Source of the DNA: Schmidtea polychroa
Lineage: Eukaryota
Assembly (NCBI GenBank): GCA_044892525.1
Contig: CM097887.1
Location: 61,814,001-61,878,000, forward strand
Direction of reading: 5' to 3'
DNA: 64,000 nt
The notes beneath the pieces are model-generated. The model was not told the origin of the DNA and did not search any database. It saw only the letters and a list, made by a program, of their open reading frames with translations. This document shows, one piece after another, positions 1-58,431 of this stretch. The position numbers and the translations under genes were made by a program. Within the stretch, counting starts at the first letter, position 1, and each line of letters begins with the position of its first letter.

Positions 1-204
1 TTTAATCTTTCATCTATTTATTTATCTTCAAATCATTTACAAGAGATGAGTATTACCTCGAGCAATTTCAATTGAAATTTCTTGAAAAAATAAACTTATT
101 TTTAGAATCGATTGTTAAATTTTATTATTATTTACAAAATGAAATAATATATAAATTAAAAATATGAATTTTACAATAAATCTAATTTTCAAAGATTTTT
201 TTTC

Positions 205-349
205 CAATCCACATTCTCAGAGAAATTTCAATAACTGACATAATTGAATTCTCTTTTAGAACGAAGGATAATTGATTCTCAATCCACATTCCCAGAGAAA
301 TTTCAATAACCGACATAATTGAATTCTCTTTTAGAACAAGGATAATTGA
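205..349. repeat. Two-copy ~75-bp tandem duplication
   Basis: caatccacattc(t/c)cagagaaatttcaataac(t/c)gacataattgaattctcttttagaac... starts at 205 and again at 280, with few mismatches. Confidence 0.9.
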
Positions 350-576
350 CGGCGAAACTTCAATGAGTTTCCCCAAATTGCCTCTCAGATAGCCAATGAT
401 TTTAATGCATTAAATGGCTTCTGATTGGCTGCTTTTTCTTCCATTAATAGGTAAGAAATTTTATTTTTTCTTCATATTTTTTAATTCAGGAACAAAATGA
501 GAAAAAGATTATTACTGGAAATCAATGTTCTGGGGGTGCATTCAATTCTAATACGTTTAACAAATTATGCTACTTC

Positions 577-1109
577 TCTGAGAAGCACTCAAAAATTACT
601 TTGGAATCAACTAAGAAAACACGGCGAATTATGTGACGTAGCCTTGATTGTTGGTCAAAAAAAAAATCTTAGCCCATAGAATTGTGTTATCTGCATGTAG
701 TCCTTATTTTAAAGCTATGTTTACTGGCGAATTATCTGAATCACTACAAAATGAAGTAATTAAATATTTGGTTATCTTTATCAAACGATATTAGGTAACA
801 TTAAGGGATATCGATGAAAGTGCTGTTGAAGCATTGGTAGAATTTTGTTATACATCTCAAATTGTTATTGAAGAGTGGAATGTACAGTGTTTACTACCAG
901 CTGCTTGTTTATTACAATTATCAGAAATTCAAGATGTTTGTTGTGAATTTTTTAAAACAGCAGCTTGATCCATCTAATTGCTTAGGTATCCGAGCTTTTG
1001 CTGATACTCATGCTTGTAATGACTTATTAACCATTGCTGATAAATTTACACACCATAATTTTCAAGTACACTTTATTTATTATTACCTCAAGATCGTCCT
1101 CTTATGCAG
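577..1109 (+). pseudogene. KLHL20: Kelch-like 20 / diablo BTB-BACK fragment, frameshifted and internally deleted
   Basis: Joining frames across a 39-bp GT-AG intron gives [142 protein letters not shown], then [12 protein letters not shown] (1074-1109), closely matching KLHL20. Frameshifts near 610 and in the A10 run at 657-666; most of BACK is missing and no Kelch repeats follow. Confidence 0.85.
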
Positions 1110-2183
1110 GTGGATAAATTTTGTGTTAATATAAACTTATATTGATTATTTATTATATTGTGTAAAATAATTTTCAGACTCTTTGATGATTTAACACAAT
1201 AAATTGAAACATTAATTATCGCAATTGTCACTGTATTAACTGGAAATCTATTTCCAACTTAAAATGGAACGCAGAGACATGAATATTGTTGATTTCGAAG
1301 CGAATATGAAACCATGAAGTATGTAGATATTAGCCCCATAGACCACTATGAGTTATATAGATTCCATTTCTGAATTAGGATGAATTTTGTAGATTTTAAT
1401 TGATTTGCACTCGAAAATTTGGTGTTTAAATGGTCACAAAGATCTATTCTCACCACTTCTATGATACAAGATGCTTTCAAGTCATTAACGTATAAATCAA
1501 TCCTAAAAATTATTATATATTTGTATTTAAAATTTCATTGAGATTTTCCAATTTTTTTTTACTGTAACTGCAAACTCAGCCTTCAATAAATCAGGGTAAA
1601 ATAAGTTGAAAACGAATGCGCATTAAGGAACAAATTAGTGATTGCCTTCTGTTATCGTGGGAAAAGAAGTAAGCGCATTCCAATCTGTAAGAGAAGACTA
1701 CGAAAAATGTGGAAAGATCTAGAATAATGATGATTCCAGATAATGAAAAATTTTTGTTGAGTTTTCTGTTCTGGTTATTGCAAATTTTTCTGCAGACAAA
1801 TTAATTTGACAGAGTTTTTATTTGTTATTAAAAATTTATTATGAAATCCTCTTTCTGGCAGCAGGGATTATAAGAGTTTCCTTTTCAAACTCCAGGAGAA
1901 AGAAATTTGAATTTATATATTTCTATTTGGATTTTAGGAAGTAAGTTATTTAATCTTTATTAATTTCTATTTTTAATCATTTGAATAAATATTTTTATCC
2001 AATAAATTAATAATTTTCGTCTATACTCAAATTTTATGCATAGATATAGATAAATAGTTTTGGATAAATATAGATATAGAGACACCGAGATACATAGAGA
2101 AACTTATAAACAAATATAGATTTAGATAAAAATATAGTTCCATTTATTCATAAACGGTTTCAATGGAAAAATCAATGACTACT

Positions 2184-2252
2184 GACAACTACACACTTCC
2201 AATTGTCGTCCAGGGTAGCCAAACTCCGACAATTGGGAATGTGTATGTTGTT
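2184..2252 (+). other. Imperfect ~69-nt stem-loop
   Basis: gacaactacacacttccaattgtcg pairs with cgacaattgggaatgtgtatgttgtt around an 18-nt loop; two mismatches are G-U compatible on the + strand. Confidence 0.6.
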
Positions 2253-2389
2253 ATTAAATGTTTTATTTATTATTTATACATTTTCCCTTTAATTATTTGG
2301 GATTTAACTGATGAGCTACCAATTAATAAATGAGACAACGCGAGTTCAACATTATTTATTTTTTATAAATATTATATATATATATTAAT

Positions 2390-3859
2390 TTAGTTCATTT
2401 TAATTTCCAATTGTTTGGTTCCATGCCGATACCGTATTATTGTTTCTTCCCGTTCATAGATTACCCCATCGATGGTTACAGTCTCCCCAACATCAATATT
2501 TGAAGGGTTTTTTCTTTTTCTCGCTTGTCGACATTCGGGCATTGGACCATACTCAAGTGTTGGGTGTATTCTTACCATCGAGACACTTATCATTACTGAA
2601 ACACATTCTTGTGAAATTTCCAAAAACGATTCGGTGGCCCACTTTAATGGAATTAATGGATTTTCAGTCTCCATCTCCACATTCTCCTCGCTTGTCAAGT
2701 CAATTTGTTCTGCTTCCATTACATCGTCAACCGGAATTTGTGCCACTTTCTCCGCTATTGCAGTTGATGCTGATGGTACCTCTCGAAGTTTTTTATATTC
2801 CTCCAACGAATATTTCTTTGATGGTAGGTTTTTGGGCATTGGTATATCATCAATCCATTGATTTTCCACTCGTTGATATACCTTGCGAATGCTCTTCACA
2901 TCCTCTAGAGCCGAATGCACACCGATTTGTGTTTCTTCTCCACATATTTCTCTCACTACCGTTTGTAATTTGAACCATTCTCCTTTCCTGGTTACTCCCA
3001 TGTTCTGAAGTATTGGTGCTGCTGCTAGATCTCGAATGCCGTACAATTGTTCAATCCATATCCCCAAGTATTGTAATTCTGCATGCAAATCATGGCCGAT
3101 CAATATTTTGCCTACTGTCAAGCGTTGTATCTCTTTCATTGCCACATATTGATCACATTGGTTCCTGCTGGCCACTTCTGTAATTCCATGGATCCTTGAA
3201 TTAAAATGTCGGATTTTTCCTCTTGGAGTGAGGTATACATCTTTTACTACTTTCCCATAATAATTCATAATTGCTATTGCTAAAGGGACCATTTTCCCTT
3301 GCTCTGATGTGCCATATTCAGCATCAATGAATAATATTCTACTGCGGATTTCTTCTAGATCCATTTCTTTTCTGAGAAACGACATTTTCCTTTTCAACAT
3401 TTCTTTCGAAATTTTCATTAACATTGGATCTTCTCTTGCACTTGGCTGCATCTGCGGAACTTCGTTCGCTTCATTTTCGATTCTGATTTCCACTACCATG
3501 GTTGTTTCTTCATTCGCTGCTCGTAACAGTCTCCACATGAAGTCTCTGTGCAGCTTCCACGACGTAAATTTTTTAAGTTCCCAACACACTTTGTTGTCAT
3601 TCGTCAGTACCTCAACGGTACCCTTGATCACATGTAGATGATATTCTTCTTTCCTTGACATCTCGACTTCTTCCGCTAATCGCAATTTTGACATCCGCAT
3701 GATCGTAAACATTTGGATCTTCATTTTTCGGTCATCAATTCTTAAATAATTTGGGATTTGGAGATTATCATTTATCCGGTATACTTTTTGTCCGGCATGA
3801 TTGTTCTTCATTTTGATGTAGCTGTCGTAGGTCGACCTTGCAAATTGTATTTGTTCCAT
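2390..3859 (-). CDS. 489-aa protein with a REX4/ISG20-like DEDDh 3'-5' exonuclease domain
   Basis: ExoI FIDAEYG, FNSRIHGIT, ExoII ILIGHDLHAEL, IRDLA, ExoIII HSALEDVKS. Intronless, intact, same strand as the retroelement; C-terminal RKRK basic patch. Confidence 0.85.
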   Translation of the reverse strand: MEQIQFARSTYDSYIKMKNNHAGQKVYRINDNLQIPNYLRIDDRKMKIQMFTIMRMSKLRLAEEVEMSRKEEYHLHVIKGTVEVLTNDNKVCWELKKFTSWKLHRDFMWRLLRAANEETTMVVEIRIENEANEVPQMQPSAREDPMLMKISKEMLKRKMSFLRKEMDLEEIRSRILFIDAEYGTSEQGKMVPLAIAIMNYYGKVVKDVYLTPRGKIRHFNSRIHGITEVASRNQCDQYVAMKEIQRLTVGKILIGHDLHAELQYLGIWIEQLYGIRDLAAAPILQNMGVTRKGEWFKLQTVVREICGEETQIGVHSALEDVKSIRKVYQRVENQWIDDIPMPKNLPSKKYSLEEYKKLREVPSASTAIAEKVAQIPVDDVMEAEQIDLTSEENVEMETENPLIPLKWATESFLEISQECVSVMISVSMVRIHPTLEYGPMPECRQARKRKNPSNIDVGETVTIDGVIYEREETIIRYRHGTKQLEIKMN

Positions 3860-4054
3860 TTTTTTCTACAATAGTTATATAATTAAAATTTGAAGTTAAT
3901 CTAATTTTAACACTAGGGTTGAGATGGGGTACCCAAAGGATACCGTCCCACCAACTAGTTATATAAATAAATAATAATAATTACCGTTTAGTTAATTGTT
4001 GATTTATTTATTTTTTTTTTCAAAATTAATGGAGTTTAATGGAGTTAACCCTCT

Positions 4055-4121
4055 TTTTATACCCTTATGAAAATTCTCTTAACCCCGTTTTTCTCTCCCC
4101 CTTAACACAGCGCTAACCAAT
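4055..4121 (-). promoter_or_regulatory. Putative internal promoter for the exonuclease ORF
   Basis: Minus-strand TATAAAA at 4055-4061, about 200 bp upstream of the ATG at 3859, and a CCAAT motif at 4117-4121, in the 435-bp gap after the pol stop codon. Confidence 0.5.
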
Positions 4122-4294
4122 CAAATTGATTCTTTCCGTTGATATTGAAAAGTGCAGATTCACAAGTAAAATAAAATGAAATATTGATCATATCCATAAT
4201 GAAATAAAATATTAATAATATCCATAAAATATTTATACTATATTACTACTACTACTTTATCAATTTTTTTTGCATGCAAAGTATTTATGTCTTA

Positions 4295-5500
4295 CTACAC
4301 AAATGTTTCTTCATAAACGATCCAAGGTCTCGCAATCTCGGATCGATTCGTAGAAGGTTTGGGTATTGCTCGAAATTCAATTAGCACAATGATAATGAGA
4401 ATAATGAGAGAGATTTTTATAATGAGAGTAGTTATTAATAATGTTACACACACAATTTCACTGTCAGTTTTTAATGACGATATGGTTCCGTTATTAGTCA
4501 TTGACTCATTGATGCTAGAAAAGATGATTACGTTGGCAAAGCTAGGGGTTTGGTTGGACTGATTTGATTTGTTTCGATTTCCATACTGCGAGTTAATAGA
4601 TGGAATTTGCACAATTTTATTTTCCACTAAAGTTAATTGCCATAGATTTGAAAATAGAGAACGTCTATAGTATTTTATTTTAATGAACACAAATTTTGAC
4701 GTCGATATTGGTGAGCGTTGACGAAAAGTTAATATTTGAGATCTATTTTTTTCATTTAATATCGATTGAATTTTTCGATAATAATATAAAATAGCTTTTT
4801 GATTGGGCTCCGCTTGTCGGGTAACATTCACTAATTGATTGAAAATATGAAAAGTAACCCGGTTTGTTTCATTAACTAATCGTATCATATGTTGACTAGA
4901 GTGTATTCTGATCCATTGGCTATCAATTTCAGTTCCGTTTTCATATAAAGATTTTTCATAATAATGAATCAGAATATTATAGTTATGATGTAATTTTAAA
5001 TTTGCATACTTTATAAAGGGTTTTCTGCTATTCAATGTATCTATCGCATAATTTTGAAAAACTGCTTTTACTTGTTGGGATTCCTGGGGTTCCCAATATA
5101 TGTCAATTCCATTTACCAGTGGTTCAATTGATACTCGATTATGTAATCTCTTTGTCCAAATATTAATGCGTATAAGATTTTGTATTTTTGTATTATTACT
5201 TTTCGAATCCAATTGCGTAATTAACCAAGGGTATTCATAATTCATTGTTAATTGTCTAGCCACATAAATATTTTTGGTGCTGTTCAATTTTATTGGGGGT
5301 TCAAAATAGTTTATTAGATTATTTATCTCTATTTCTTCTGCTCCTCCAGCATAATAAACCCAAACTATTTGAGTACATGTTGAGTAAATATGAACTTTGT
5401 CTAATAATACAACTGTATTAGTTGCATATAACGGGAATACTCTCACTGCATTTACTGACATTATGTTGATAATCATTACTGTTGTAATCAATAAAACTTT
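4295..5500 (-). CDS. C-terminal extension of pol: type I membrane glycoprotein (signal peptide, FN3-like ectodomain, TM)
   Basis: In frame after integrase: hydrophobic VLLITTVMIINIMSVNA (5447-5497), about 11 N-X-S/T sequons, FN3-like spacing GIDIYWEP...LKLHHNYNILI, and TM IVCVTLLITTLIIKISLIILIIIVLI (about 4381-4457). Confidence 0.7.
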   Translation of the reverse strand, partial: KVLLITTVMIINIMSVNAVRVFPLYATNTVVLLDKVHIYSTCTQIVWVYYAGGAEEIEINNLINYFEPPIKLNSTKNIYVARQLTMNYEYPWLITQLDSKSNNTKIQNLIRINIWTKRLHNRVSIEPLVNGIDIYWEPQESQQVKAVFQNYAIDTLNSRKPFIKYANLKLHHNYNILIHYYEKSLYENGTEIDSQWIRIHSSQHMIRLVNETNRVTFHIFNQLVNVTRQAEPNQKAILYYYRKIQSILNEKNRSQILTFRQRSPISTSKFVFIKIKYYRRSLFSNLWQLTLVENKIVQIPSINSQYGNRNKSNQSNQTPSFANVIIFSSINESMTNNGTISSLKTDSEIVCVTLLITTLIIKISLIILIIIVLIEFRAIPKPSTNRSEIARPWIVYEETFV

Positions 5501-5639
5501 ATTGATGTAACTCAATGGAGCAGGGTTTTTTGTAAATTTTTGTTTAATTACTGGGTTCCCTGCATCTTTATTTGGCTTTGATCTCAATGGATAACGTGAT
5601 TCATCTTCTATTATCTTCTTGCATCTATTTACATGAACG

Positions 5640-7558
5640 ATGATTGTCCCAGCCTTTTTATTGTTTTGTGGACGCAATTTTAAGTTAGTCTCTGTCGTAT
5701 CACACACTAGATATGGTCCTTTAAACGGTCGTTGCAATTTCGTTGACAAGCCTTTTGTCGGTTCTGGTTTGTTTATATACACAAGATCTCCAATTTTAAT
5801 GTCATGTGCCCGTGCGCGTTTATCATAGCATTCTTTATACGCTTCTTGATGATGCCTTATGTTAAGTCCAGCTTGGATCCATACTGACTGTAGTCTTTCA
5901 TGCATAGCTATTTTATAATCTGACACATCCATATATTGGGAAATAGGTGACTGAAATTCTAGATCGACTGGCATATTGTTTCGTCGTAGATACATGAGAT
6001 AAAAGGGTGTTTCTCCAGTGCTTTCATTTACTGCATTCCGGTATGCAAATAAGCATGGTTTAATGAATAAATCCCAATCCTTTTGTTTCCTATTTACATA
6101 GGATGATATCATATTAATTAGTGTCCCATTAAATCTTTCAACTAGACCATCTGTTTGTGGATGATATGGTGAGGTACTAAGTTTCAATATACCAAATAAA
6201 TCTGTAATTGATTTAAATAATTCACTCTGAAAATTTGTTCCTTGATCTGTAAGTAATTTCTTTGGTGCTCCGTATCGAAAAATAATATTCTCCACAAATA
6301 TTTTCGCAACTGTTTCTGCTTTCTGATTTGGCATTGCATAAGCTTCTGGCCATTTAGTAAGATAATCGCAAAAAACGATAATGTATTTGTTGCCATTTGT
6401 TGTTTCCGGCAATGGACCAACGATGTCCATTGCTGTCATTTCCATTGGCGCCTTGGGCACTGGCATAGGCTTAAGCGGAACTTTTATTTTCCGTCCCGTA
6501 TTTCGTCTTGTTAGGCATATCTCACACGTATGACACCATTGTCTGACATCTTGTTCCATCGTTTTCCAATAATATTTCTGTTTCAATCTTGATAATGTTT
6601 TTCGCGCTGATAAATGCCCTCCTAATGCTCCATCGTGATACAACAACAGTAATGATTTTCGATGTTTTGTCGGAACAATAATTAACAAATTTTCATTTTG
6701 TACACATTTTAACAAACCATCATGAATAATGTATTTATGGTTCTCTTCGGCAATATGTTTCCAGTCACTCTCCTTTTTGATTGAGACAGCATGTTGACGT
6801 AACTGATTTAATTCCTCGTCATTTTCCTGATCATCTTGTAATTTTTCTATATTATTTACCGTTTTAATTGCCATGAATATTGTATTTTCGCAATTATTTT
6901 CCTCTTGATCAACATTATTTTCTACGGGTATTCTCGACATAGCATCCGCATTTGCATTTGACTTTCCTGTACGATACTTTATCTCGAAATTATATTCTTG
7001 CAACGCAATTGACCACCTAATTAATTTACTGGCCGAATCTCTGTGCTTCATTAGCCATTGTAACGGATTGTGATCCGTAAAGACAACAAATTTTCTGCCC
7101 ACTAGGTATTGTCGAAAAGTGGTTATCCCATATACCAATGCTAACGTTTCTTTTTCGATTGTCGAATAATTTTTTTCATGAGGTTTCAGTGATCTGCTGG
7201 CATAAGCAATTACATGATCTTTTTCCCCTTCTACTTGCTGTCCTAATACCGCGCCTAATGCGAAATTACTGGCATCTGTCATTAATATAAACGGTTTTTT
7301 AAAGTTCGGACATCTTAATATCGGCTGTTTTATTAAGCTTTCTTTGAGTTTATCAAACGCTTCTTGCTGAGCTGTTGTCCATTTAAATTTTGCTTGCTTT
7401 TTCAATAACATGTTCAAAGGTTGTGCGACATGTGAGAAACTTTTAATAAACTTTCTGTAATAACTAGCTAATCCCAGAAATTGTCGAACCTGATCTACAT
7501 CCTTGGGAATAGGATATTCCTTAATTTTCATTACATTTTCTGGATTTGGTTGCAAACC
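5640..7558 (-). CDS. pol: pol: RT connection, RNase H and integrase
   Basis: RNase H LMTDASNFALGAVL / EKETLA / FTDHNPL / ADAMSR; integrase zinc finger GGHLS...WCHTCEIC, catalytic MDIVGP / LTDQGTNF / GLVERFN, and GPY motif FKGPYLV. Confidence 0.95.
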
Positions 7559-8500
7559 TCAACGCGAAATGATATGACCCACATAAACTACTTCAGATTT
7601 TCCCCATTCACATTTGGAGGGTTTTATTTTTAAGTTTTCTTCTAACAATCGCTTGAATACTGTTTCCACATCCTGCAAATGTTCCTGAAAACTATTCGAA
7701 AATATTATTATATCGTCAATATACACTAATGCATGTGGTATATCGCGCAAAACGAAATTCATACCTCTCTGAAATGTAGCAGGCGCTCCTGTTAATCCGA
7801 ATGGTAACACGTTAAACTCATATAGACCCTTCCCATCTGAAAATGCAGTTTTCCTTCTGTCTTCCTCTTTGACTTTAAATTGATTGTATCCTTTATTAAG
7901 ATCTATTACCGTAAAATATTGCACCTCCCCCATCTGATCGAACATTTCCTGTGGAACAGGAATAGGATATGTATCTTTTCTCGTAACTTGGTTCAATTTT
8001 CGATAGTCGACACAAAATCTTAAATCACCGTCCTTCTTTTTAACTACTACTATTGATGATGAGAATGGTGAGGAACTATCTCTTATTATATTGAATTCTT
8101 TCATTGCTTTGATTTGCCGATCACTTTCTTCCTGATGTATGTATGGTATTCTATACGGCCGTAATTTTATTGGGGTTTCGTTGAGTAATGGTATTTCATG
8201 CTCAATCACCTGAGTGAGTCCCAGATCATACTCATGTTTTGCAAATACATTTCTATATTTCTTTAATAATGCACCGAATTCTTGTTTTTGCAAATCCGTC
8301 AAATCTTTGCTTGTGATCTGAGGTTCTTTATAAATTTTTATATTTCTCGGTAACTTCTGAGCTTCCTCTGATTTGATTTTTGTTAATTTTCCCAATTTGG
8401 TTTTGGGCTTTATTTCAACGGATCTTGCACTATAATTCGCTATTCTAACTGGTACTGACTTATTTTGGACTTTCACTACTTCATCACACATAGGCACATC
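7559..8500 (-). pseudogene. pol: pol: reverse transcriptase bounded by two premature in-frame stops
   Basis: LRFCVDYRKLN, IDLNKGYNQ, LPFGLTGAPATFQ, VYIDDIIIFS. TAA at 8501-8503 and TGA at 7559-7561 interrupt one continuous frame shared with the protease and RH-IN segments. Confidence 0.95.
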
Positions 8501-9020
8501 TTATTTTTCAACCAGCTTTTGATTTGGCTCAAATATGTACTCCTCATCTGAGACCCTCATAACATCTGCATAGTATATTACTTCGCTTTTTGGTGGTACT
8601 TCCAATGTTTGGTTTAGAAATACCTCTCCTACTTCAGGCACTACTTCACCCATTTGTCCTTTTATTAGTTTTCCAGTTCTCAGATCAAGAGAGATTCCAT
8701 CTAGTTGCTCCATGACATCCATGCCAATAAGACATTTTACAGGACTTTTTCTCATCACGGATACCCAATGAATTATTTCTTGATCTCCAATTATCAGTTT
8801 AACTTCTAATTTTCCAACAATATTTAGTGCATTATGTGACATTGATTTAATAATGTGATTCGTTGGTTTTATTTTGGCTTTCTCCTGATACGTCAAGAAG
8901 CTTTCCGCTACTATAGTATGACTTGAGCCTGAGTCTAATAAAGCTTCCACTTTTCTTTTGTTAAACTGTATGTTTATTCGAGGTTGTTTTCCTCCTACTA
9001 CTGTTGTCATTAGTGCATAG
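8501..9020 (-). CDS. pol: Retropepsin (aspartic protease) and linker
   Basis: VEALLDSGSSHTIV and CLIGMDVM motifs, in frame downstream of the glycoprotein TM and cytoplasmic tail. Confidence 0.9.
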
Positions 9021-9399
9021 CTGCATGGTAAACCAAGCATATTCTTTCTTTCAATTTCCGCACTCGTTGGTTCAATCTTCTTTAATTCTATTGTGATATT
9101 ATCGACCGATTTCATCTCCTTTAGTTTTTCACTTGGATATACTGGTGCTGTTGGTCTAAATGTCGGGGTGTACCATCTACTAAGAGTATCAATCCCGCTT
9201 AATTTTGGCATTGGTTCAAGCAAGAACCTGGACTCTGGCTCTACTTTACTCTTTATTACACTTTTTCGAAAGTATTTATGCTCCGATTCCCCGTTGTTGT
9301 TATCATCATTATGATCGTCGTTTTTATCTTCCGACTGACACGTCGATTCCTCACTTTTCCGGCCATTTCTTAATTGTGCCCTTACTCTTGCCATTTCTT

Positions 9400-11203
9400 T
9401 AAATTGATGATCTGTAATAAAGAATCTTGCCAACAATGGAATACAACCAATAACTAATTTCCATGACCATCCCGATATTACGTATATTCGATGTACTGAC
9501 AACATTTGCGACACTACCACCTTTGCCGTTATCATAATCACGTAAATTCCAATTAAACCTGCACATGCTTGTCCCAAAAACATGAACTTGCCCAAATCTT
9601 TTCCATCGTTTTATACGTAGCTCGTTTGAAATGATCAGGTGTTAGCAAATTTTCGTAATTTACTGTTCCTTCTCCATTCGGTAATACTGTGTCAATCATT
9701 TCTGAAATTATCCGTTCCTTTTTGGATGGAAACAACAAATTCCTTTGAGCTTCTTCGATATCTTCGCTTGCATACAAGCCCATTTGTGCCATTTTGTTTA
9801 GTGATGTGAAATTTATCAGGTATTCTAAATTTGTTAATTCTAGTTTGTCTGGAGTCTTGACCCCACGATAGTCTGGTAAGGCTATCCATGAGTCGGTAGC
9901 TAATCGGTATAAAGGGGCTAATAATCAATTGCATTGCAAAAGTTTTGGTTTAGTTTGTTCATCAAGCAAGATTCTTGTTATCGGTTCCATAAATCGTACC
10001 TTTCCCCCAAAGCTTACTGGTAATTCGTTCGTACATTTTTCGTATTTGGCAATTTTCACTGTGACTTCTTTGCATTTTTAACTGTATAATGCTTCTCCAA
10101 ATATTCTCGCAAACACTCCATTTTCTGATATTAGCATAGGTGCTACTAAATTTGGATTCGTAATTGCCATCACCATCCGATTTCGGAGAATCTCTTTATT
10201 CAACTTACAATCGTTCAGAATCATTTCTCTATATACATTTTCCATGATGTTTTGACTAAAATGAAACAAATAATCAATTTTATTATTAAAATAATGAGTA
10301 AGTTTAATGTCATCTCTATGAATTTTTATTTTTGCTTCTTCCACAACATTTCTAGACACGTAAACACCTTTATAATTTGTTACATATACCATTCGACCAC
10401 ATTTATTTGTGATTTCCTTTTTTATAAATCGCATTCCATCTGCTGGTAACGTAGACATTAAAACTGTTCCCATTTGCTTTGTCCATACTGGGGTTGATTT
10501 AATGGTATTATTTGGTCTATAATTCATATTGAAATTATCTGGTTTATCTCTAAACTGTTCTCCTACTAGTTCTTTAAAGTTCATAGTTTTTAAGTGCGCT
10601 AAATTACACTTATTTGTTTCTACATTATAAACAAGAATCGATTCCCCTGTTTGACAATGTGTTTGTTTCATATTACAGAATGGATGAGTTTGTAATTTTC
10701 CCGTATCATCATCGAACTCCTTCGAACTCTCTCAACTCCGTGAGATACTCTTCTAGCACCACTGTTTGCTGAATAATTTTACCGTTCATTTTATATGGTT
10801 CACCTTCACAGTCGCCATTTGCTTTCATAACTCCCTTTACAATTATTGTTTCTCGTATTCTATGGTTCAATTTTGCCTTTAAACGAATTTCTGGACTTAT
10901 TTTTAATTCTCCTGTTTGAAATGCTGCTAGACAGTTTTCTGGAAGCACCTCGACTGGCCTAGGTATCGCATGCATTTTTATGAGTGACGTATGGCTCCAT
11001 TTACCACAATAAAATACAAATGTTGTATGTTTGACAATACACTCTCTCACTTGAGTTCTTCGCAGATCAGACTCCTGATACACATAATATTTTACGTCAT
11101 TTTCTATTTTTAAACTGCTCGGATACGCACCTGGGCACTCCGACATATCTACTACCGAATAAACTTTTCCCATTTCAGTTTGGGAACAATCGTACGCAAC
11201 TAA
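9400..11203 (-). pseudogene. env: Chuvirus-like (class III, gB-like) envelope glycoprotein located between gag and protease
   Basis: Begins LVAYDC after a signal peptide; Cys-rich; contains FNNKIDYL, NPNLVAPML..GVFARIFGEALYS*KC.EV.V...CTNELPV...FMEPITRI, GLYA...LLFPSKKE and a hydrophobic C-terminus FLGQACAGLIGIYVIM...GWSWKL. Lesions: frameshift near 10715, TAA 10078-10080, TGA 9925-9927, frameshift near 9592. Confidence 0.75.
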
Positions 11204-13207
11204 AGATGATGTCTGTGTAATTATTGCACAAAACGTAATCACCATAAACATCGCCCATGGAAATATCATAGTTTTTCTTAGTTCTGGCTTAACTCTTTCA
11301 TTTACTCGTCTTTGGGGTGGACTCATTTCTTGCTTCTCATTTTTCTTTTCTGTTAGAGATGAACACAGTGTTTTCCAACCACCTTTTTTGTTTACCCAGC
11401 TCATTAAATATTCGTTTACTAGCCGGGCAGCGATGTCTATCAAATTTTCTAACTTGTCTGACCTTGCGAACGTATGCGTTCCAATTTCTAAAACAACATA
11501 AGTTAAAGCTATTATTATAACCTCCTTATTAATTTCATTTTTTGCCAAATTTTCAATTACTGATCTCTCGCAAAATGTATTCTCTTCGCCAAATTTCTGC
11601 ATCACTTCAGGAAGCCTATTCTTCATCTCTTTAACTATTTCTTTCAGTTCATCATCTACTTCTACTTCTATGTCGAACATTGGATATACTGCTTTAACGA
11701 GATGTTTCAACATTTTCTTAGTTTCGTCGACGTCCTGTTCTAGCCTCACTAAATATTTCTTTATTTCATATAAAGTTCTAACTTTCTTATTTTTGATTTC
11801 ACCATTTATCTCGCCTTCAGGTACAAGTGACTCTCCTTGTACGTCTGGTTCTGTGGACTGATTTTTGTTATCAGGATCTTTTTGCTCATTATCACTAACG
11901 ATTTCATCAATTTCTTTATTTCCCTTAACTTTTTCATCTTGTTCCTCTGTGTCAGGCTTGTTAGACTCAATATTTACTTCTAAACTCACTCCTTTTACTA
12001 CGACTATATGGTTCACTAAATATCCCACTCGTCCATCTCGGATCAAATATCCGTTTTCATCCAGCTCTTGTGGTACACACTCACAATCATATAGGTATTC
12101 ATCATCGTCAAGTTCTTCACCTTTGTACATTACTATAATAATTCCATCTTTTCCCAGCGTTTCAGCCGCTCTCTTCCGCAATTTTCGGACCTTTGCACAC
12201 CAATGCTCGTCTACATATTCCGTTTTGCCATATCCCTCATAATCTAATGCTATCAAAAATGGCTTTAACTCTACTCTTGCCTTTCTGAGCTCCTTGCCCA
12301 ATCTTTGCAATAAACTTCTTAATAACTTGGCATATCTGGTTTTCACATGTAAATATGGTCGTATTGTATTCACTATTTTTAGTTTATCGTTGTCCTCCAT
12401 TTCTAATTTCTCAATAATCTGTAACTTCTCATCGATTTCATCTTCATCTCCAATATATAACGCATCATTTAATTCCTCTAATATCTCCCTTGAATTCCTT
12501 TTGTCTATTATTTTACTATTTATTATTTCATCACTAGTAATTACATTTTCCATTTTTAATTCATTTGTACTTCCTGGAATAAATCCACAATCTACCAAAA
12601 ATTCGTCATTTTCTAACAATCTCTCATTAAATCTCAACTCTATCATGCATCCTTCCTTTTTTTCTTTTAATTTCTTCTTTAAATCATTTACACAATCATT
12701 TGCCTCACAACGACAACATAATACACTTTTATCAATCTCGTTTACTACTTCCACCAAGATGGAATCTAAGCCTGTTTTCTCTCTCAAAGCTTTTCCAAAT
12801 ATTTTCATTAATTCTTTAATTTCTTCTTTATACTTTGGATTCATATTATAGTAGTTAACGCACAAGCTAATTACACTTTTTATCTTTCTCATACTCAAAG
12901 ATATTTGACTTAATTCTCTCAACGATTTGATCACTTTAGCCGACTCTATTTCATTATTTCCAATTAGTTTTTCGATTCTGGTCATTATCATTGTTGCTTT
13001 TTCACTTTCTAAGTCATCTTTTATAACTCTCCTTTTCGACTCTTTTTCGTTCAATTCCTCTTGCGACTCATACATCATGTGATTATTGTAGTCCTCTTCT
13101 GATTCAAACTTTGACATCAATCGATCCAAACGTCGACCCATTTCTCTCACTTCGTTTTCAATTCTTTCATTAAAATTATCTGGCTGAATAAAAGCTACAT
13201 TATCCAT
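11204..13207 (-). CDS. Cargo region of ORF2: two helical + ubiquitin-like modules, coiled coil, Bcl-2-like domain, TM/signal peptide
   Basis: UBL-like segments at aa 148-220 and 316-380; BH2-like LMSWVNKKGGWKTLC; hydrophobic MIFPWAMFMVITFCAIITQTSS. Open and in frame with the glycoprotein N-terminus. Confidence 0.65.
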
Positions 13208-14436
13208 CTGCGCCTTTGGAATTTATCCATATTTCTTGGACATGATCTAGCCATGTGTCCATAACTTCTGCATGAATGACATTGAATTTGTCCTTGTAGA
13301 TTTACTTTATCTCTCTGCGGTGATGGTGATGTTGATGTTGATCTTGACCTGGCAAAACAATTTCGTGACACATGCCCTTTTCTTCCGCAATTAAAGCATT
13401 GTAAGTTATCATTAGTTCTCTGCTCATTAATGTTCGCTTTAGTGAAACTTTTCGCACCATTTCCTTTTAACCAATCAGGCCACATTTGCCTTGGACTCCG
13501 TTGTACATTATTTTTGGACCAGCATTGATTGCTGTCATGTCCCATTCTTTGGCAATTATCACACTGAATCGGAATTGGGCTTCTCTGTACTCTATTTTTA
13601 AACCAGCATTGGTTAACATGGTGTCCAATCCTTTGGCAATGACTACCTTGGATGGGACCTTCCTTTCCATCTATTTGAATATCTGTTGACTTGTTCGACT
13701 CAAATTTGGATCTAAATTTTGGTGATGGACTACTTGTTTGTTGAAAACGATTGTTTCTAATTGGGGTTACTGATCTTTCGCTTGCGCCTGAGATGACTGC
13801 AAACGACTCTGATTTTGACTGTGTGCTTTTTAAATTTAGCTCAATTTTCATTGCCTTTTTGATCAATTCATCAAAGTCATTAAAATCAACATAGCATAAA
13901 GCCTTTTTAATTTCTTTCTTTACTCCTGACAAGAATTGATCCTGCAATAATTCTTTTACCTGCTTTGCCATCTCGGCCTGTTCTGGTTTCACTTCGAACG
14001 CTTTCTCTGCAAGAGTTGATAAATGATAAGAAAACTCACTTACCGATTCCTCTGGCTTTTGTACGCGGTTATAGAATTTCTGTCGCATTATCCGTTTGAT
14101 ATCCACTAGGATTAATTTCGTGGCTAACGCGTCTTTCAACTTGGTCCAGTCATTTGCTACTATTCTTTTATCAATTTGTTGCCACGCTTCTCTGGCTGCT
14201 CCTTTTAGGTATAGCGGTAATCTTTGCACCATTATCGATTGGCTCCATCCATAGGCCGTCGCATACATATAGTAATCTGCCATAAAATCGACAAATTCCA
14301 GCGGATCTCCACCGTACTGATCCACAGGTAGTTTTTGACAACTCGCATAATCATTGCCTTCCTTGCCGTTGCCCACCGTGGACACAGGTGTTTCGTCGTT
14401 GTTATTTGTATTATTGGTTAGTCTTTGGGTACTCAT
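13195..14436 (-). CDS. gag: Gag (retrotransposon capsid domain plus CCHC zinc knuckles)
   Basis: First ATG at 14436. YGGDPLEF..F, RLPLYLKGAAREAW, QKPEESVSEF, QFLSGV; three intact CX2CX4HX4C knuckles and one degenerate. Confidence 0.9.
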   Translation of the reverse strand: MSTQRLTNNTNNNDETPVSTVGNGKEGNDYASCQKLPVDQYGGDPLEFVDFMADYYMYATAYGWSQSIMVQRLPLYLKGAAREAWQQIDKRIVANDWTKLKDALATKLILVDIKRIMRQKFYNRVQKPEESVSEFSYHLSTLAEKAFEVKPEQAEMAKQVKELLQDQFLSGVKKEIKKALCYVDFNDFDELIKKAMKIELNLKSTQSKSESFAVISGASERSVTPIRNNRFQQTSSPSPKFRSKFESNKSTDIQIDGKEGPIQGSHCQRIGHHVNQCWFKNRVQRSPIPIQCDNCQRMGHDSNQCWSKNNVQRSPRQMWPDWLKGNGAKSFTKANINEQRTNDNLQCFNCGRKGHVSRNCFARSRSTSTSPSPQRDKVNLQGQIQCHSCRSYGHMARSCPRNMDKFQRRRWIM

Positions 14437-14808
14437 TAAATTCTCTATTAGTGTTTGGCTTCTCAATTTATAAAATGATCGGGTCAACACAGGCTTTACT
14501 CGTCTAAAATTCAAAGTGTTACAATTACAAAATTTACCTTTCGTTTTAATTTTGACTTTTCAACAATCAATCGTTACAAATTTTTCCACTTTGCTTCAAT
14601 TATAAAATCACCACTTTAATAATTCTCAAATAAATGTTCACCACTTTCAAATAAACGTTTCACTTCAATATTTATTTATTTAATTATTATTATCTTTTTC
14701 CAAATTTTTCCGATACTTTACTAATCTCAACAAATTTTCACCGATCTTTTTATTCTTCGGTATCACGCAAATATTATCACAATTTCAACAAATCTTCACC
14801 GACTTTTG

Positions 14809-14826
14809 ATCACGTCGGGCTCACCA
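14809..14826 (-). promoter_or_regulatory. Primer-binding site complementary to the tRNA-Trp 3' end
   Basis: Minus strand TGGTGAGCCCGACGTGAT, 4 nt after the LTR end CA; 17/18 match to the animal tRNA-Trp(CCA) terminus ATCACGTCGGGGTCACCA. Confidence 0.85.
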
Positions 14827-14830
14827 AATA

Positions 14831-15729
14831 TGTTGGGTTTTTAATGCAAGTCGGTACTACGGTCTGACTCCTTTGTGTTCTTTTCCAAATAAATAAATAA
14901 ATAAATAACCCAACACAAAATCTTTATTGACACTGATGCAATTACACTTTTACACTTGTATTAGTTTACTCACACTTGATACAATCAGGTTTTGTCTGCA
15001 CTTTTCAATTTATTAACAAATCTCACGCAGGGGTAGATCTTCCAACGGGAGATGTCCCTTTCTGGTACGTTCGATTTTTAAATGGTTTAATTTCTACTAA
15101 CTTTAATATTTCCCTTTTCGCTCTCTTCAAACTTCTATTTTCTTTTCTTCGACCAACTGGCATTTTGTTTTCTTGCCAGTTGCTTTTATACTCGTTTAAT
15201 AATTGACTTTATTTTTGCCAATTATCTTTGGTCCTATTTCCCCCCGGGCTTCCTCTTGGAGATCTAATTTAATTGAATGGAATTTGTTTGACGGCGCTTT
15301 TTACTTTTTATCCGGCTAAATTAATTGCCTTCCCAAAATTAGATTTCTCCGGCTAAATTAATTGCCTTCCCGAAATTGGATTTCTCAATTCGCTCGGGTT
15401 TTCCATTGTATCGGGTTTCCCATTAGCTCGGGTTCTCCATTAGCTCGGGTTTCCCATTAGCTCGGGTTTTCCATTAGTTAATTAATTTTTAATTAATTTT
15501 TGTTTTTTGTAATTTATTCCTTTTAGGGACCCCCCATTGATTTTATTTTATTATAGCTGAACTCGTCTCATTATTTCGCATCCGCCCATACCAGTTTCCC
15601 CCAGAAAATATTCATTTTTTAAAATTTTTGATTTTTAATTAATATTTTGTACTTTAAATTTTTATTCTGAATTTGGTGTTTTTGTCAATTTTCACCTCAT
15701 TTTTGTGCCTCCCTTGTTGAACCCCAACA
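14831..15729 (-). repeat. 5' LTR (899 bp)
   Basis: Terminal inverted repeat TGTTGGG...CCCAACA. U3 has a 37-bp tandem pair (15311-15384) and about five 17-bp ctcgggtttcccattag units (about 15390-15476); minus-strand TATAAAA near 15184-15190 and AATAAA near 15009-15014. Confidence 0.8.
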
Positions 15730-16075: not shown

Positions 16076-16541
16076 CTGGATGATTCAATCAAGAAAAACT
16101 CATCGCAGGACAATTCAACAAAATTAAATACAAATTAAAATAAATATTAAAATGTAAAACTACCAAAAAACATTTAAGTTAATGAAAAATCATCTAGTTG
16201 AAATTTATCACCAGTAGTGGGTATAGAGATCCTTGAATGCTTAATTATGTTGTAGGGATAGGGTGAATAAAAAGCAAATAAATTAACTGGAAGCTAGTGT
16301 AAAAGTTACGGATTGTGAAATTATATTGCTACCGGTCTTGTTATCATTTTTATACGAAATAACCTTGTACTAATAAAAAATTTAAAAGAAATGTAAAACA
16401 AAATTTGGATTATAATAACTTCTTGACTTTCCATTAACCTCAATGTTTTTTTGGTTGTTTTATTTTTTATTATTTATTTTAATTTGTATTTAATTTTGAT
16501 GAATTGTCCTGCGATGAGTTTTTCTTGGATGAATCGTCCAG
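16076..16541. mobile_element. Foldback/MITE-like element with ~120-bp inverted arms
   Basis: ctggatgattcaatcaagaaaaactcatcgcaggacaattca (16076-16117) is the reverse complement of 16500-16541; pairing continues inward to about 16195/16424. Confidence 0.75.
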
Positions 16542-17350: not shown

Positions 17351-18882
17351 TTAAAATTCATCTAAAATAAAACTGTCGAATTCTTTGTCATAACTATATA
17401 CTGTGCAGAAATCAGATGATGATGATCTTTGCTTGGGGTCTCCCCGAGTTTTGAGAACATCCAAAACTGTTTCTTGAAAAATTTCGAAATAAATATTCCT
17501 CATTACCAGGTCAATGTCCATTGTTACACAAATAATAAACGAAATCATTTTCACATTAAATTCGATTTTCTTATCAAATCTTTCATAGTTTTTTCTATCC
17601 TCTTCATAAATATACCATGAAAAATCTCTATTCAAATATACAGACTGATTTGATATTGTTAATTGGTGTCCATAAAAGCTTTCAGAAAGTTTTACTGCTT
17701 TCTCCATTATCGGCATCATTTTTATTATGATTTCTGCATTATTTATTGTGATAATCGACACGGTACCACACAAGAATTTTTTATTATTATTAAATTTTTT
17801 TAATTGAATTTCTTTTCTATCATTTGAAAATTTTTGATAAAGATTAACTTTTTCAATTGTCTGATTAAAACAACATTTTACTGAAATAAATTGTAATTTA
17901 TTTCTTAAATTTATCATCTGTGGCAATTTGGAATTTTTTGGAGATTTTTTGTAGATTGGAGTGGGATTTTCTGAAACCAATTGTTTCTGATTCACACTTT
18001 TAGAAGGCTTATTTTTACGGCGTATAATATATTGTTTAGTTAACATATTACTAGTCTCCTTGAGAGGAATCTCTTTAAAATTATCTTGATTCCCTAGTGA
18101 TGATTGAAACAAATTTTTATCTAATAGTTTGGGATATTTGTTGTAGGGTTGTATGAGAAAGTTCAAACTGTCATTTAAACGGACATTTGATTTATTTACG
18201 TAATTCAAATGGCACTCCACGACAGAAGTTGATTTGAGATTTCTTTGAAAATTCAATTTTCGATTATTAGAAATTCCCAATGAATTCATAAATAAAATTC
18301 GATTCTTTTTATTCACTAAAAACGTTTGCTTCAAAAGAAACTTTCGTTTTTTATAGTTGACGTATTCAGAATCAGATAGACCAAAAGATTTTTGCAAGAG
18401 ATATGTTTTGTTTGTGAGATTTTTCGATTTCCTCAATTCTAAATAATTCTTAGACATTTTATGAATTGATTTTTGAGTTTTGTTATTGATTTTATCATTC
18501 AAGTTATTTTTTTTCAATTCCACAGGATAATTTGATATATTTTTAGCTTCAAGAGAATCTTTTGAAACCTTTCCATAATCAATAACAAAAGAATTGACCG
18601 ATTTAATGAATTGACGATTGATGTTTGACGTTGAATTTTCGATATTGGATTGAGTTAACGGGTTTTCTTTCATTCTCGCCAATGGGAATATTTTATGATT
18701 GACAAAAGTAAGCTGATTCAATGGAAAATTTATATCGCGTTTTCTAACAGAATCCATGTTCTTGGTTTCTTTTACCAGAGAATCATGAAAGTTTTTTTCA
18801 CTTTTATTATTAGTGAATTCAGAATCGCTACAAAATAATTCCCTGTTGGTTTTGCACATTGAACTACGTGTAACTTTTCTTC
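17351..18882 (-). CDS. Large exon of an uncharacterised K/N-rich host protein
   Basis: Stop-free 502-aa frame in AT-rich DNA, with a plausible splice acceptor near 18883; no family recognised. Confidence 0.55.
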
Positions 18883-18952
18883 TAAAAAATTATTATTATT
18901 TTTTATAAATATTAATATTATTATTATTAATATTATTACTAATAATAATTTT

Positions 18953-42482: not shown

Positions 42483-45400
42483 TCATCGAAAATAATCATG
42501 TCCAAAATAATTATCATCTGCTGGATCATGGAAATCATCTGTATCATCTGCTGAGATAGCTTCCGTTGAATCTATAAATATATCGGTGTCACCGCCCCTA
42601 TAATGGCCATATGCCAAACTTTGATTTTTATCCACCCAATTTCGCTTATCATCTCTACATGTCAAGGCTCTTTTATTATTTTTAATACTAAAAAGTTGGT
42701 GATTTTTTGACGTTATTCTAAACTGAGGGACTGTGTATATTTTATCATTTAAATAACAATCTAGATACGTCTGATGTGTTAGTCCAGTATCTTTCATACT
42801 TATCCCCTTAGCCTTCATACTTTCCTCATCACCCATCAAACTGTAACATTTAGGTCTCAAGAACACCCAATCTTTATATAATAACCCTTTATTCTCGTCT
42901 TTGAATTTACCAATGACAGAATCAAGGTTCCTACTATATAAAGGATGATTTGGGTCATAATTCGAAGTATCTAATAATTGATCTCTATCATCGCAGGTAA
43001 AAGAATGTCAAGACTACAATGTTTAATTTCCAAGAAGAAGGAATCTGTGTCTCCAGCAACGATATTAATTTCGCAGTTGAATTCGTCGCGATATTTTTGC
43101 AACTCTTCATACTGCAGCTGGTACATCCTGAGTTTGGATAAATCAAGTACGGTTTGACCAATGTAACTAGGTCTATTCAAACACACTATGTCCTTCCTCA
43201 ATAAAACCGAAATCAAGTCATCATCGATTTTCGTGGATTTACGAAAAGTCGGTTTCGAACAGAATGTTAATAATCTCTGTGAAGAATTACACAGACGTAA
43301 ATTAATACGTTTTTTAAGATTTTCAACAGTCTTGCCGTAAAGACTGTTGTTTAATAACTTATAAAAATTTTTATCGAGTTTATTTGTCGACGCTGCTCGT
43401 AACGCCGTATTTGTGTTAATATAATTTTTGAAAATTTTATCTTGTTTAAATTTAATTGCTCTATGTGTTTTTGATATTTTAACACCTAATTTAATAAATA
43501 TTTGTAGAAGCCTCCAATGAAGAACATAGTTCCTCTTGGGGCTGTGTGTAAGCAACAGCTTCTCTATTTTCGAACCCGGTACACACATCTTTTCAGCGGC
43601 AACGGGAAGATCGTCCAATTTGTCGTGAATTGACGTCGGTATTTCTAAATCCACTTCTATGGTATAACCATAATCAAGCAGATCTAAATCTACCGTTGTG
43701 CATTCAACAATTATATTATTTAATAAATTATCATCAGTAACCCATTCAAAGTCACTGCAAGGTAATGGTTGACTTAAAGCCCAACCGTATAAATTATTTA
43801 TATCTATGTAAAGCAAAGCGGTATCCGGGTCTGTTTTTACATAATGTTTATTTACAAAAGTTAGTCCGCCACGGATACCGCCCTCGAAAAAGTTATACAT
43901 CTCCATATCGGTGAGGAGCTCAATTGGAGAGTTTAAAGTTAATAAGGCTGAATTCCAAGACATACCTGGAATCCCTAAGAAATTTAATGGCTCTAGTCGG
44001 TTATGAGCAATGGACTTAGCTCTAAATTGCTGGAAAAAATCGACTAAAAGGAAAACATCAAGTTTTAAATAAACCATCATGTAATCGAAAAGTGAAGTAC
44101 ATGAAGTTTCAACCCAAATTCGCTGAGCTGTCTCATATTCAGCGGGAGTCACATCTTTCCAAATAGGAGGTAACTGACGAGTGTTATGTAAAACCTCTAA
44201 TGAAGTTGCGGCATCATAAGGAAAAATCCCCTTTGCAGTTATTATTGTACCCTGAAATTCTGATTCGGTCAAGGGTAAAGATGATAAAGTTTTGACAGCA
44301 TTATTTAAAGACTCGCTGACAAATTGATAAGAGTCTATAAATTTAACAGTTAATGAGTCAATCCTAGCAAAAAGACTAAGGAATTTCTCGCTGGTTAAAG
44401 GAATACAACTAATATTCCATGAATGATATTTTGAAAGGCTAAATTTCAAGATATGATGCAGATCATAACCCTTTAAATTATGAAATACTACAGGAAGGGT
44501 ATGTCTAATTTGCCTCGACAGATTACAAGTTGTACAAGCGGCACCGAGATATAGACCGGTAAAATGATCATGGTCCCTAACTGGACTAACTAAAGGCTTA
44601 TTGCACAAATAGCATGATGTGCGGTTTTCAAACATTAATTGTTGCTCATCTGTAATTATCATTTTCTTTTGATAATTTTTATAATAATAAGGAGTTACAA
44701 TATATTTCCCTATCATTTCAATTTCAGTAAGAAATTGATCGACACAATCTAAACCGGTGAACGACTTATAAATTTTTACGCCCGTAAAATTAATAATAAA
44801 AAGCATACCGGCAGAAATAGGCAGATGACGTTGAAAGTAGCGAGTGTCTTTAGGTAAGATAGCCTCAAAGTCAGCGTAAATAACAAAGGGAGGAGTGACT
44901 GTTTTACTCCAATCAGTAAATTCTAAATATTTATTTTTAAGCAATGTGTACAAGGTAGTACCAAGCTGATTTTTATCGCAAAGACCCTTATGTCTATTAA
45001 AAGCGTCATCATTTCTAAAACCGTTTAAACATCTAGGGCACCACTGACTACAAATCCTAACAGGAGTGATTGAACTATTCCTACAATTAAGGAATCTATT
45101 TAGGTCTGTGATTCCAAGATAATGATAATTATCATTCTTTTCAATTAATAATAAATTGATAGGTATGGCTCCTACTATCTTACTCCTGTATATTATATCA
45201 ATAAAGGGATGTTTCATAACTGCATCTTCATCGGAAATGTCAATCAAAGCCTTTTCGTTATAAGTAAGAACATTTATACTATAACCTGGATTTTGTTGTT
45301 CAAATTTACTTATATTTGATAGTTTCATCGGCATATCATTAGGATCAAATTTAATTTCAGAAAGATTGTATGAATTAGGGCGATTTCTATATTGCCTATT

Positions 45401-50419: not shown

Positions 50420-50760
50420 AATGGCAACTGTTTTAAAATAGTTGGATATCTGAATAAATTTGTTTGAATAAGTGATTTGTGACGTTTTTTAAAAAATTGG
50501 AAGCTTGTGGAAAAATTTATGACGAATATACAGAGTTTTAAAACAGAATTGGATTTAACTATAATATTTTACGGAACTACTTAAGAGGTTTATATATTTA
50601 TTAATCAATTTAATAATATGATATGTTATTGCAATATTTTTTTGTCATTATCTCATAAATTATTTTTTCAATATCTCATTTTCTAAATTTCATAGTTCCT
50701 AGAAAACACATTGCCCAGTGTGGCTGTTGGATAAGTCGGCCCTGTATGCAGGACACAGCA
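50420..50760. repeat. Interspersed repeat, copy 1 (copy 2 at about 58432-58839)
   Basis: aatggcaa.tgttttaaaatagttggatatctg...gtgtggctgttggataagtc is shared by both copies in direct orientation. Confidence 0.85.
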
Positions 50761-57776: not shown

Positions 57777-58431
57777 TTAATATAATATACTTTCAACCAA
57801 GACCTCAAACTTCATTTGCAACCCGTTTTTTAATTTAAAAATAAATTTATAATTTTATTTATTTTAAATATTTTAAAATTGCAATTTAGTTTTAAAAATG
57901 TTAGTATACGAAATTTTGTTATTTTCTTTTAAATCTTATTATTTTTTTTTCATATTTCCTCACATACAGGCAGGGACGTTTTAAGGTCTTCGTTGGGACT
58001 ATGCATTTTTACATTCGTAAGCCATAGGCCCCAAATAAGTAAATTCTACATTATAGTAAAACACACATAATGTAAACACAGTTAGTAATAAGCGTGACAC
58101 GTGCCTACTGTTTTTAGCAACATCTAGACTGACATAATTTTATAGAAAAGAAAAAAGCACACATCAAACAGCAACAAAGCAGTCAAGTTTGGACCTGTTT
58201 ACGAGCCTATGACCATATAGTACTAAAATCCCAGATCCCAATACATTTGTAAGCATTTAAATTATTTTAGTAGTTATTAAAGATTCTCTGGGACAATATG
58301 TCCCTACAGTATTGAAAGGGTTAATCATGATTTCTCAAAGTACAAAATTTTTATTTTTTCTCAATTAACGTTTTGTAATGTTAATTGCTATTATGCAATA
58401 TTTTCTGTCTTGCGAAATGTCGTCTTAGAAA

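Follow-up and report, generated by a model that had tools for sequence, protein, structure and literature searches.

A young Ty3/gypsy element of Schmidtea polychroa with a predicted membrane-threaded polyprotein and a second, PDZ-motif membrane protein behind the integrase

What is the long run of coding sequence at the left end of a 64,000-nucleotide stretch of the Schmidtea polychroa genome, and what would one element gain by joining envelope and replication genes to ubiquitin-like, Bcl-2-like and exonuclease modules? The stretch (GenBank assembly GCA_044892525.1, contig CM097887.1, positions 61,814,001 to 61,878,000 of the forward strand), called the window here in its full length, holds what is almost certainly a damaged copy of a young, high-copy Ty3/gypsy long terminal repeat (LTR) element. 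In unbroken copies, gag, a set of cargo domains, env, pol and a membrane protein encoded behind the integrase (the tail) share one reading frame of about 3,400 codons. The family is real and looks active. Positions below are those of the window, and the element's features lie on the minus strand unless stated otherwise.

The element measures 17.57 kb, because its 3' LTR sits to the left of the window and not within it. The 5' LTR (14831..15729; 899 bp, TG...CA ends) is 99.89% identical to the 3' LTR, which we located 943-1,841 bases beyond the window's left edge; a repeat comparison found no second LTR inside the 64 kb. A preliminary description, made from the letters of the window, had confined the element to 2280..15729, and this span proved too short: no LTR starts at 2280, and that candidate was rejected once the true 3' LTR was found further left. 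The window copy is flanked by a 4-bp target duplication, ATAT, and a polypurine tract precedes its 3' LTR. Its primer-binding site (14809..14826), 4 nt inside the LTR, starts with TGG and is one that we take to be tRNA-Trp-like. Clear 4-bp target duplications were present in 7 of 11 copies inspected, the window copy counted, while the other four comprised one apparent 5-bp duplication and three copies sited in AT runs. Together with the protease-reverse transcriptase-RNase H-integrase order and a Ty3-like reverse transcriptase (RT), the TG...CA LTR pair, primer-binding site, polypurine tract and short target duplication place the element in Metaviridae. Seven further LTR pairs differ by 0-5 substitutions each, with long gaps in some. 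Tandem repeats within the LTR (37-base and 17-base units; 15307-15477) vary in number between copies.

Minus-strand open frames tile the window from 14559 to 4295, and a separate 491-codon frame occupies 3865-2390. From 13222 to 4295, six breaks divide frames of 837, 217, 50, 123, 369, 313 and 1,087 codons. Two of the breaks are frame changes, near 10720 and 9590; the other four are stops, at 10078, 9925, 8501 and 7559. The preliminary description had read 13207-4295 as a single polyprotein after repair of about six lesions. The six breaks agree with that reading, but the start at 13207 does not hold; in other copies gag is in frame with the rest (24 of 103, below), so gag is part of the polyprotein and its junction near 13200 is a seventh break in the window copy. 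All seven breaks are private: among 47 copies compared, none of the 36-46 covering a given site matched the window there. A defective subfamily sharing the window's breaks is ruled out by the same counts. The window LTRs are nearly identical, yet the interior between them has these seven private breaks and about 2% divergence from its relatives, a mismatch that either copying from an already decayed template or LTR homogenisation could produce.

Intact relatives of the kind that the preliminary description proposed to look for are present in the genome. A 1-kb cargo query returned 536 candidates, and all 40 scored matches were at least 99% identical, as were all 40 scored for the exonuclease stretch. 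Of 39 non-self copies, 27 span at least 95% of 4295-13207 and 12 are deleted or interrupted; five form one open frame over the whole fetched stretch, from 14058 (inside gag) to 4298 (the final stop). Median nucleotide identity of the 39 to the window copy is 97.95%. A search with the tail protein, in which 103 of 2,527 candidates were scored, placed 24 matches in frames that measure 3,413-3,442 codons; by hand count, 19 of these frames have exactly 3,437 (stop to stop). Could the cargo be nothing but nested insertions, or a misassembly at one locus? The 3' region does differ between copies, and the host gene fragment in it is a passenger with varying deletions, both in keeping with such an origin. 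For the coding cargo, however, nested insertion and misassembly are excluded, because most of the 39 copies are colinear, the intact ones have a single frame and the whole is LTR-bounded: every colinear copy has the cargo, one LTR pair and target duplication enclose all of it, and the module order is kept in sister families. We give this origin practically no credence.

The module order claimed earlier was recovered by Pfam (env, RVP, RVT_1, RNase H and integrase), along with two signal-like and two transmembrane (TM)-like stretches. A hydrophobic internal signal/anchor (11207..11269), kept in sister families, leads into Env (9410..11206), a Monjiviricetes-type fusion glycoprotein with a predicted TM segment at 9568-9509. 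The window copy, with four breaks in this stretch, matches Monjiviricetes_fusion in four successive Pfam pieces (E 2.5e-23 to 5.1e-8), and the same stretch in another natural copy matches at E 9.5e-71. The env ectodomain of a natural copy is full length, with 546 residues and 15 cysteines. A sequence search found no solved structural relative of env, and the ectodomain of one natural copy has no furin-type R-x-K/R-R site. Our comparisons with published accounts extend to the available parts of the papers cited. In the literature, Monjiviricetes-type env is counted as class III/gB-like; by the account in PMC13524379, the furin site is not always kept in gB-type env. The replication modules follow, all by Pfam: an aspartic protease with a DSG motif (RVP; 8699..8989), RT (YIDD) with RNase H (6992..8200, with the window copy's stop at 7559) and an integrase with HHCC, core and GPY-like motifs (5700..6676). 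Against solved structures, the RT matched Ty3 best, at E 1.7e-49, with foamy-type RT at 5.7e-16 and HIV RT at 1.6e-10.

Behind the integrase lies the tail, a predicted type I membrane protein (4295..5497) with an internal signal at 5497-5444 and a TM segment at 4462-4358. Its 327-residue ectodomain has 10 N-glycosylation sequons, and its cytoplasmic part of about 20 residues ends in E-T-F-V. By the consensus S/T-x-hydrophobic (PMC4810129), this predicted cytosolic C-terminus is a class I PDZ-binding motif. A C-terminal T-x-V was found in all six lineages with an intact end, at identities as low as 24%: four families end in ETFV, ETWV, ETWV and ETFV, and homologues 24% and 31% identical end in STLV and VTQV. 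Among 1.84 billion representatives, the tail had four homologues, 24-46% identical and without informative names, and none was found among longer proteins. One of them opens with the linker that follows the integrase here, and the arrangement therefore also occurs outside this genome. The tail ectodomain likely contains fibronectin type III (FN3) domains, probably three, to judge from its sequence. An L-x-x-x-x-x-Y pattern, which we take to be the FN3 tyrosine-corner motif, occurs in it three times, and the Atlas neighbours of one tail homologue are FNDC5/FNDC4 and cytokine (interleukin-receptor-like) receptors, at 0.85-0.90. A third sign, weak like the other two, is a neogenin alignment over the tail's second repeat (E 0.96).

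Hydrophobic stretches border each of the two ectodomains at both ends. The order signal-ectodomain-TM-pol-signal-ectodomain-TM would give four passes and leave Gag, cargo and Pol in the cytosol; we consider it quite probable that the polyprotein threads the endoplasmic reticulum membrane in this way. The preliminary description had also proposed a membrane-threaded polyprotein, and the single frame in other copies agrees with that layout. Deletion derivatives add to this picture. In three independent deletion types, the env leader runs on in frame into the ectodomain of the tail, so that lumenal sequence meets lumenal sequence; as the odds of an in-frame join are one in three each, this is modest support for the topology.

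Using two outside exonuclease homologues as queries, we reached ten loci. Among them are two sister families in the same genome that retain the full module order, with identities of 86% and 81% for RT, 45-48% for the tail and 39-54% for the exonuclease. Pairwise ratios of nonsynonymous to synonymous substitution (dN/dS, Nei-Gojobori) between natural copies were below 1 throughout, and every cargo module is under purifying selection: RT 0.03-0.11, env 0.05-0.08, exonuclease 0.12-0.13, ubiquitin repeats 0.15-0.40, tail 0.29-0.40 and Bcl-2 region 0.34-0.53, with three further pairs saturated at synonymous sites. A fourth, pol-less lineage retains gag, cargo, the env leader, the tail end and the exonuclease. 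Pol-less derivatives, which shorten the tail ectodomain to differing extents, arose at 9-10-base microhomologies, joining window positions 10477 to 5158 at three loci and 10865 to 5291 at one, with three further loci derived likewise. They could be a source of extra Gag in trans.

The amino-terminal part of the polyprotein carries gag and two kinds of cargo. Gag (13195..14437), whose break to the rest is private to the window copy, has CCHC zinc knuckles (Pfam zf-CCHC, E 1e-9). Two repeats follow, each predicted to fold as a helical bundle plus a ubiquitin-like domain: repeat 1 (12527..13024), lacking a terminal di-glycine, and repeat 2 (11981..12520), whose modelled ubiquitin/SUMO-like domain matches that fold at a Z score of about 10 and a root-mean-square deviation (rmsd) of 1.5-2. 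The repeats align with each other above 500 of 500 shuffles (score 72; shuffles 34 +/- 6). Beyond them lies a Bcl-2-like domain with a BH2-like W-x-x-x-x-G-G-W motif (11348..11731), called by Pfam in relatives and modelled at low confidence. In the window copy alone, Pfam matches to ubiquitin, Bcl-2 and RNase_T reach E values of about 0.004-0.013, below cut-offs, and the ubiquitin and Bcl-2 calls are backed by sister families and fold rather than by that copy. Among 13 aligned pieces, ubiquitin was matched by five (best E 4.2e-7) and Bcl-2 by eight (best E 6.2e-6), and a profile search of PDB ranked Bcl-2 and Bcl-xL first (E 0.003-0.03). A search for protein homologues of the amino-terminal cargo found none.

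Confidence in the structure model was high for both repeats, with a predicted local distance difference test (pLDDT) of about 70-93, and poor for the acidic linker and the Bcl-2 region. In both repeats, the beta-grasp fold superposed on ubiquitin/SUMO at Z 9-10.6 and rmsd 1.2-2.5 over 70-80 residues. Of the units named in the preliminary description, the two helical/ubiquitin-like ones are borne out by fold, and the Bcl-2-like domain is putatively present, with a Pfam score below threshold in the window copy. As both ubiquitin-like domains lack a di-glycine end, they probably serve in binding and not as conjugated tags. In its helical part, repeat 2 resembles the MED26 TFIIS N-terminal (TFIIS-N) domain (Z 10.4, rmsd 2.7, 82 of 90 residues aligned) and a yeast LW domain (Z 8.9), but it does about as well against a helical region of PI3K-gamma (Z 10.0), and scores below Z 13 are common among helical bundles; a TFIIS-N-like fold preceding each ubiquitin-like domain is therefore a lead from modelling. 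The TFIIS-N fold is that of the LEDGF integrase-binding domain.

The separate open reading frame (ORF) downstream of the polyprotein (2390..3859) encodes 489 residues, a predicted ISG20-like D-E-E-D-h 3'-5' exonuclease domain with N- and C-terminal parts, in line with the DEDDh exonuclease named in the preliminary description. Its closest solved structures are ISG20L2 (E 1.9e-11) and ISG20 (E 2.4e-7). Of the catalytic set D179, E181, E261, H315 and D320, all but E261 are invariant across the 7 aligned rows, and at the third acidic position the six element-type rows have glutamate. A homologue search with this ORF gave three matches. A part in RNA-based immunity, suggested earlier, is a guess, and end-trimming is equally plausible.

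How might these parts work together? Overall, we hold with moderate confidence that they are best explained as a polyprotein-built enveloped element with a second glycoprotein. Signal peptidase would cut behind both internal signals, and the element's protease would release the cytosolic parts. Gag and the Bcl-2-like domain would stay anchored through signal 1, like the tail anchor of cellular Bcl-2 proteins, and Pol would remain tethered to the Env cytosolic tail until the protease freed it. The FN3-type glycoprotein would be left free, and the parts would assemble an enveloped particle; we lean slightly towards cell-to-cell passage in this form. More tentatively, Env would act in fusion, and the FN3 protein could serve as an attachment or adhesion factor, with its PDZ-binding motif holding it at cell junctions as DLG1 holds the Env of HTLV-1 (human T-lymphotropic virus type 1); by that analogy an attachment or junction role is possible, though short of probable. 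With similar reserve, the Bcl-2-like domain may keep the producing cell alive, and the exonuclease may trim ends of element RNA or complementary DNA or destroy sensed nucleic acid. Infectivity and host manipulation are what we infer from the whole. In the most elaborate version, which we hold to be doubtful, a single four-pass polyprotein would give rise to an enveloped virus with two glycoproteins. These would be a class III fusogen and a captured FN3 adhesion receptor, parked at junctions by its PDZ motif for synapse-like spread; the TFIIS-N-fold domains would serve as the element's own integrase cofactor or tether to transcription complexes, and the ISG20-like nuclease would hide its nucleic acid.

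Several observations weigh against this explanation. A second, shorter hydrophobic stretch lies behind the Env TM segment (9460-9410), and a membrane crossing there would put Pol on the lumenal side. The single frame yields Gag, Env and Pol at 1:1:1, which is odd for a particle, and we found no splice or frameshift giving extra Gag. As to the FN3 assignment, the neogenin alignment is not significant, the Atlas recognition of the tail homologue is 1875, under the 2300 mark, Pfam gave no fn3 match in 8 plus 4 tail sequences, and the tail model has a pLDDT of 40, with no Foldseek match at E 0.001, its rows being noise. The Bcl-2-like domain is below the Pfam cut-off in the window copy, lacks a clear NWGR motif and is modelled at pLDDT below 50. 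Constraint on the cargo (dN/dS 0.3-0.5) is much weaker than on pol.

Two other explanations keep the same element and read its membrane proteins differently. The tail could be a host-directed modulator, with the topology unchanged: a decoy of the cytokine-type or guidance receptor kind, or a sink for PDZ polarity scaffolds, altering the producing cell instead of attaching particles. Its Atlas neighbours fit such a role, as do the faster evolution of the tail than of env and the retention of its C-terminal part in pol-less derivatives; many viral PDZ motifs relocate or destroy DLG1/SCRIB (PMC4810129). The tail is, however, made in Env's frame, amount and membrane face, and its ectodomain is cut back unevenly in derivatives. 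Partner glycoproteins of fusion proteins share frame, amount and membrane face with the fusogen. We regard a modulator as unlikely. A somewhat more remote idea, which we think improbable, is that the element replicates only inside cells, with Env and tail serving as membrane tethers or in local cell-cell fusion and no extracellular particle formed. The 1:1:1 output and the env ectodomain without a furin-type site fit it, and env-driven transmission is untested for most such elements (PMC13524379). But that ectodomain is full length and strongly constrained, and the loss of a furin site has precedent in gB-type env, as noted above.

How new is such an element? The preliminary description knew of none with this combination, a claim that Burro (PMC6431247), the Schmidtea errantiviruses (PMC13524379) and exonuclease ORF3s (PMC5408684) contradict in large part. 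Burro and GYPSM1 are giant gypsy-like planarian elements (Jurka 2007 and Grohme et al. 2018, as cited in PMC6431247). In Burro, gag, Ubi/SUMO-like and BCL-2-like domains and a mononegavirus-type env stand in frame before protease and RT, and its describers proposed integrated proviruses meddling with apoptosis and ubiquitination (PMC6431247). The present element shares the arrangement of gag (with three CCHC knuckles in Burro), ubiquitin-like, Bcl-2-like and env modules in one ORF before protease, RT, RNase H and integrase, as well as accessory ORFs. It differs in size, with about 3,400 codons in 17.6 kb where Burro has 4,873-5,140 codons in more than 30 kb, and perhaps in content: MATH, BIR, ankyrin and dUTPase gave no Pfam match at E 0.1 and little sequence is left unassigned. 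The available part of the Burro account (PMC6431247) mentions neither a membrane protein behind the integrase nor a PDZ motif, and neither a TFIIS-N-like repeat nor an exonuclease ORF. This comparison is by description and size; neither a dUTPase search (two matches, one locus) nor a BIR search (150 scored, short frames) yielded a Burro copy.

Six Schmidtea GAG-ENV-POL errantiviruses have been catalogued (PMC13524379). Similar to Smed_errantivirus_1, for which 45 copies are listed, the present family has GAG-ENV-POL order and many near-identical copies, and its env is identical by eye at 106 of 129 residues (82%) of the printed segment (PMC13524379), which makes it a sister family and not the same family. 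GAG-ENV-POL errantiviruses are characterised by a gB-type/Monjiviricetes env that lies between gag and pol and has a signal at one end and a TM at the other, and by several intact near-identical copies; both were found here. By the sequence features compared, the family is thus a GAG-ENV-POL errantivirus; by size it is not Burro, though it resembles a compact one. The main text of PMC13524379 contains no fibronectin, exonuclease, ubiquitin, PDZ, apoptosis or polyprotein, and the cargo is not described there.

Accessory parts have looser parallels. Bdelloid rotifer LTR elements carry a DEDDy exonuclease as ORF3 (PMC5408684) and likewise place a 3'-5' exonuclease in a separate ORF behind pol; ours is ISG20-like with the histidine (D-E-E-D-h) and accompanies env and a second glycoprotein instead of replacing env. 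HTLV-1 Env has a class I PDZ-binding motif and engages DLG1 at cell contacts (PMC4810129). Both are retroviral-type membrane proteins ending in S/T-x-hydrophobic; in the present element it is a separate FN3-like protein and not the fusogen that bears the motif, and the parallel is an analogy without homology. A literature search found no FN3-like or PDZ-motif protein behind an integrase, although the family or its tail may be on record in Jurka 2007, in Grohme et al. 2018, in Sacco et al. 2022 or in Repbase. Within that search, the second membrane glycoprotein, the TFIIS-N-like repeats and the ISG20-like exonuclease ORF were not found in print.

The remainder of the element is a 3' non-coding region (1..2389) that runs 942 bases past the window's left edge to the 3' LTR. 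It contains a fragment missed by the preliminary description, a frameshifted, intron-containing piece of a host BTB-BACK (kelch-like) gene on the plus strand (485..1130), presumably from a KLHL20-like parent. At least 40 copies carry the fragment, with differing deletions and frameshifts; there are also copies that have an extra BACK exon, or that lack it. The fragment has the look of a passenger in decay. Being antisense to element RNA, it might give rise to small RNAs directed against the host gene. Its host parent was not found among six BACK loci fetched, five of which matched the element and the sixth nothing. Some copies have a different 3' region bearing TAA runs.

Outside the element, the window holds a 512-codon lysine/asparagine-rich open frame without a Pfam match (17351-18889, minus strand) and a 95-base inverted repeat (16076-16170 and 16447-16541; 92% complementary, 276 bases apart) resembling a miniature inverted-repeat transposable element. 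Two diverged direct-repeat pairs lie at 42589-44089 / 62472-63969, about 19.9 kb apart, and at 50420-50759 / 58430-58839, about 8 kb apart. Across the genome there are at least 150 BIR domains, mostly in 392-393-codon frames, which probably belong to a Polinton family of high abundance that carries an apoptosis inhibitor; Polinton-like open frames adjoin several element copies. A sequence set labelled as a different organism covers 30 of 30 element bins in long pieces at about 91-99% identity; this could stem from differing labels, from close kinship or from a recent transfer.

If the tail is a plain passenger, the finding shrinks to a compact Burro-like family. Gypsy elements that bear an env are widespread outside Drosophila, and cell-to-cell movement is untested for most of them (PMC13524379). 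With its conserved PDZ motif, the second membrane protein would offer a specific and inexpensive way of asking where, and by what route, such elements pass from cell to cell; the TFIIS-N-like repeats hint at an element that brings its own chromatin or integrase tether. The family is half Burro's size and young, and it resides in a planarian, where RNA interference (RNAi) and transposon de-silencing are routine; Burro itself is de-silenced in smedwi-2 RNAi (PMC8532177).

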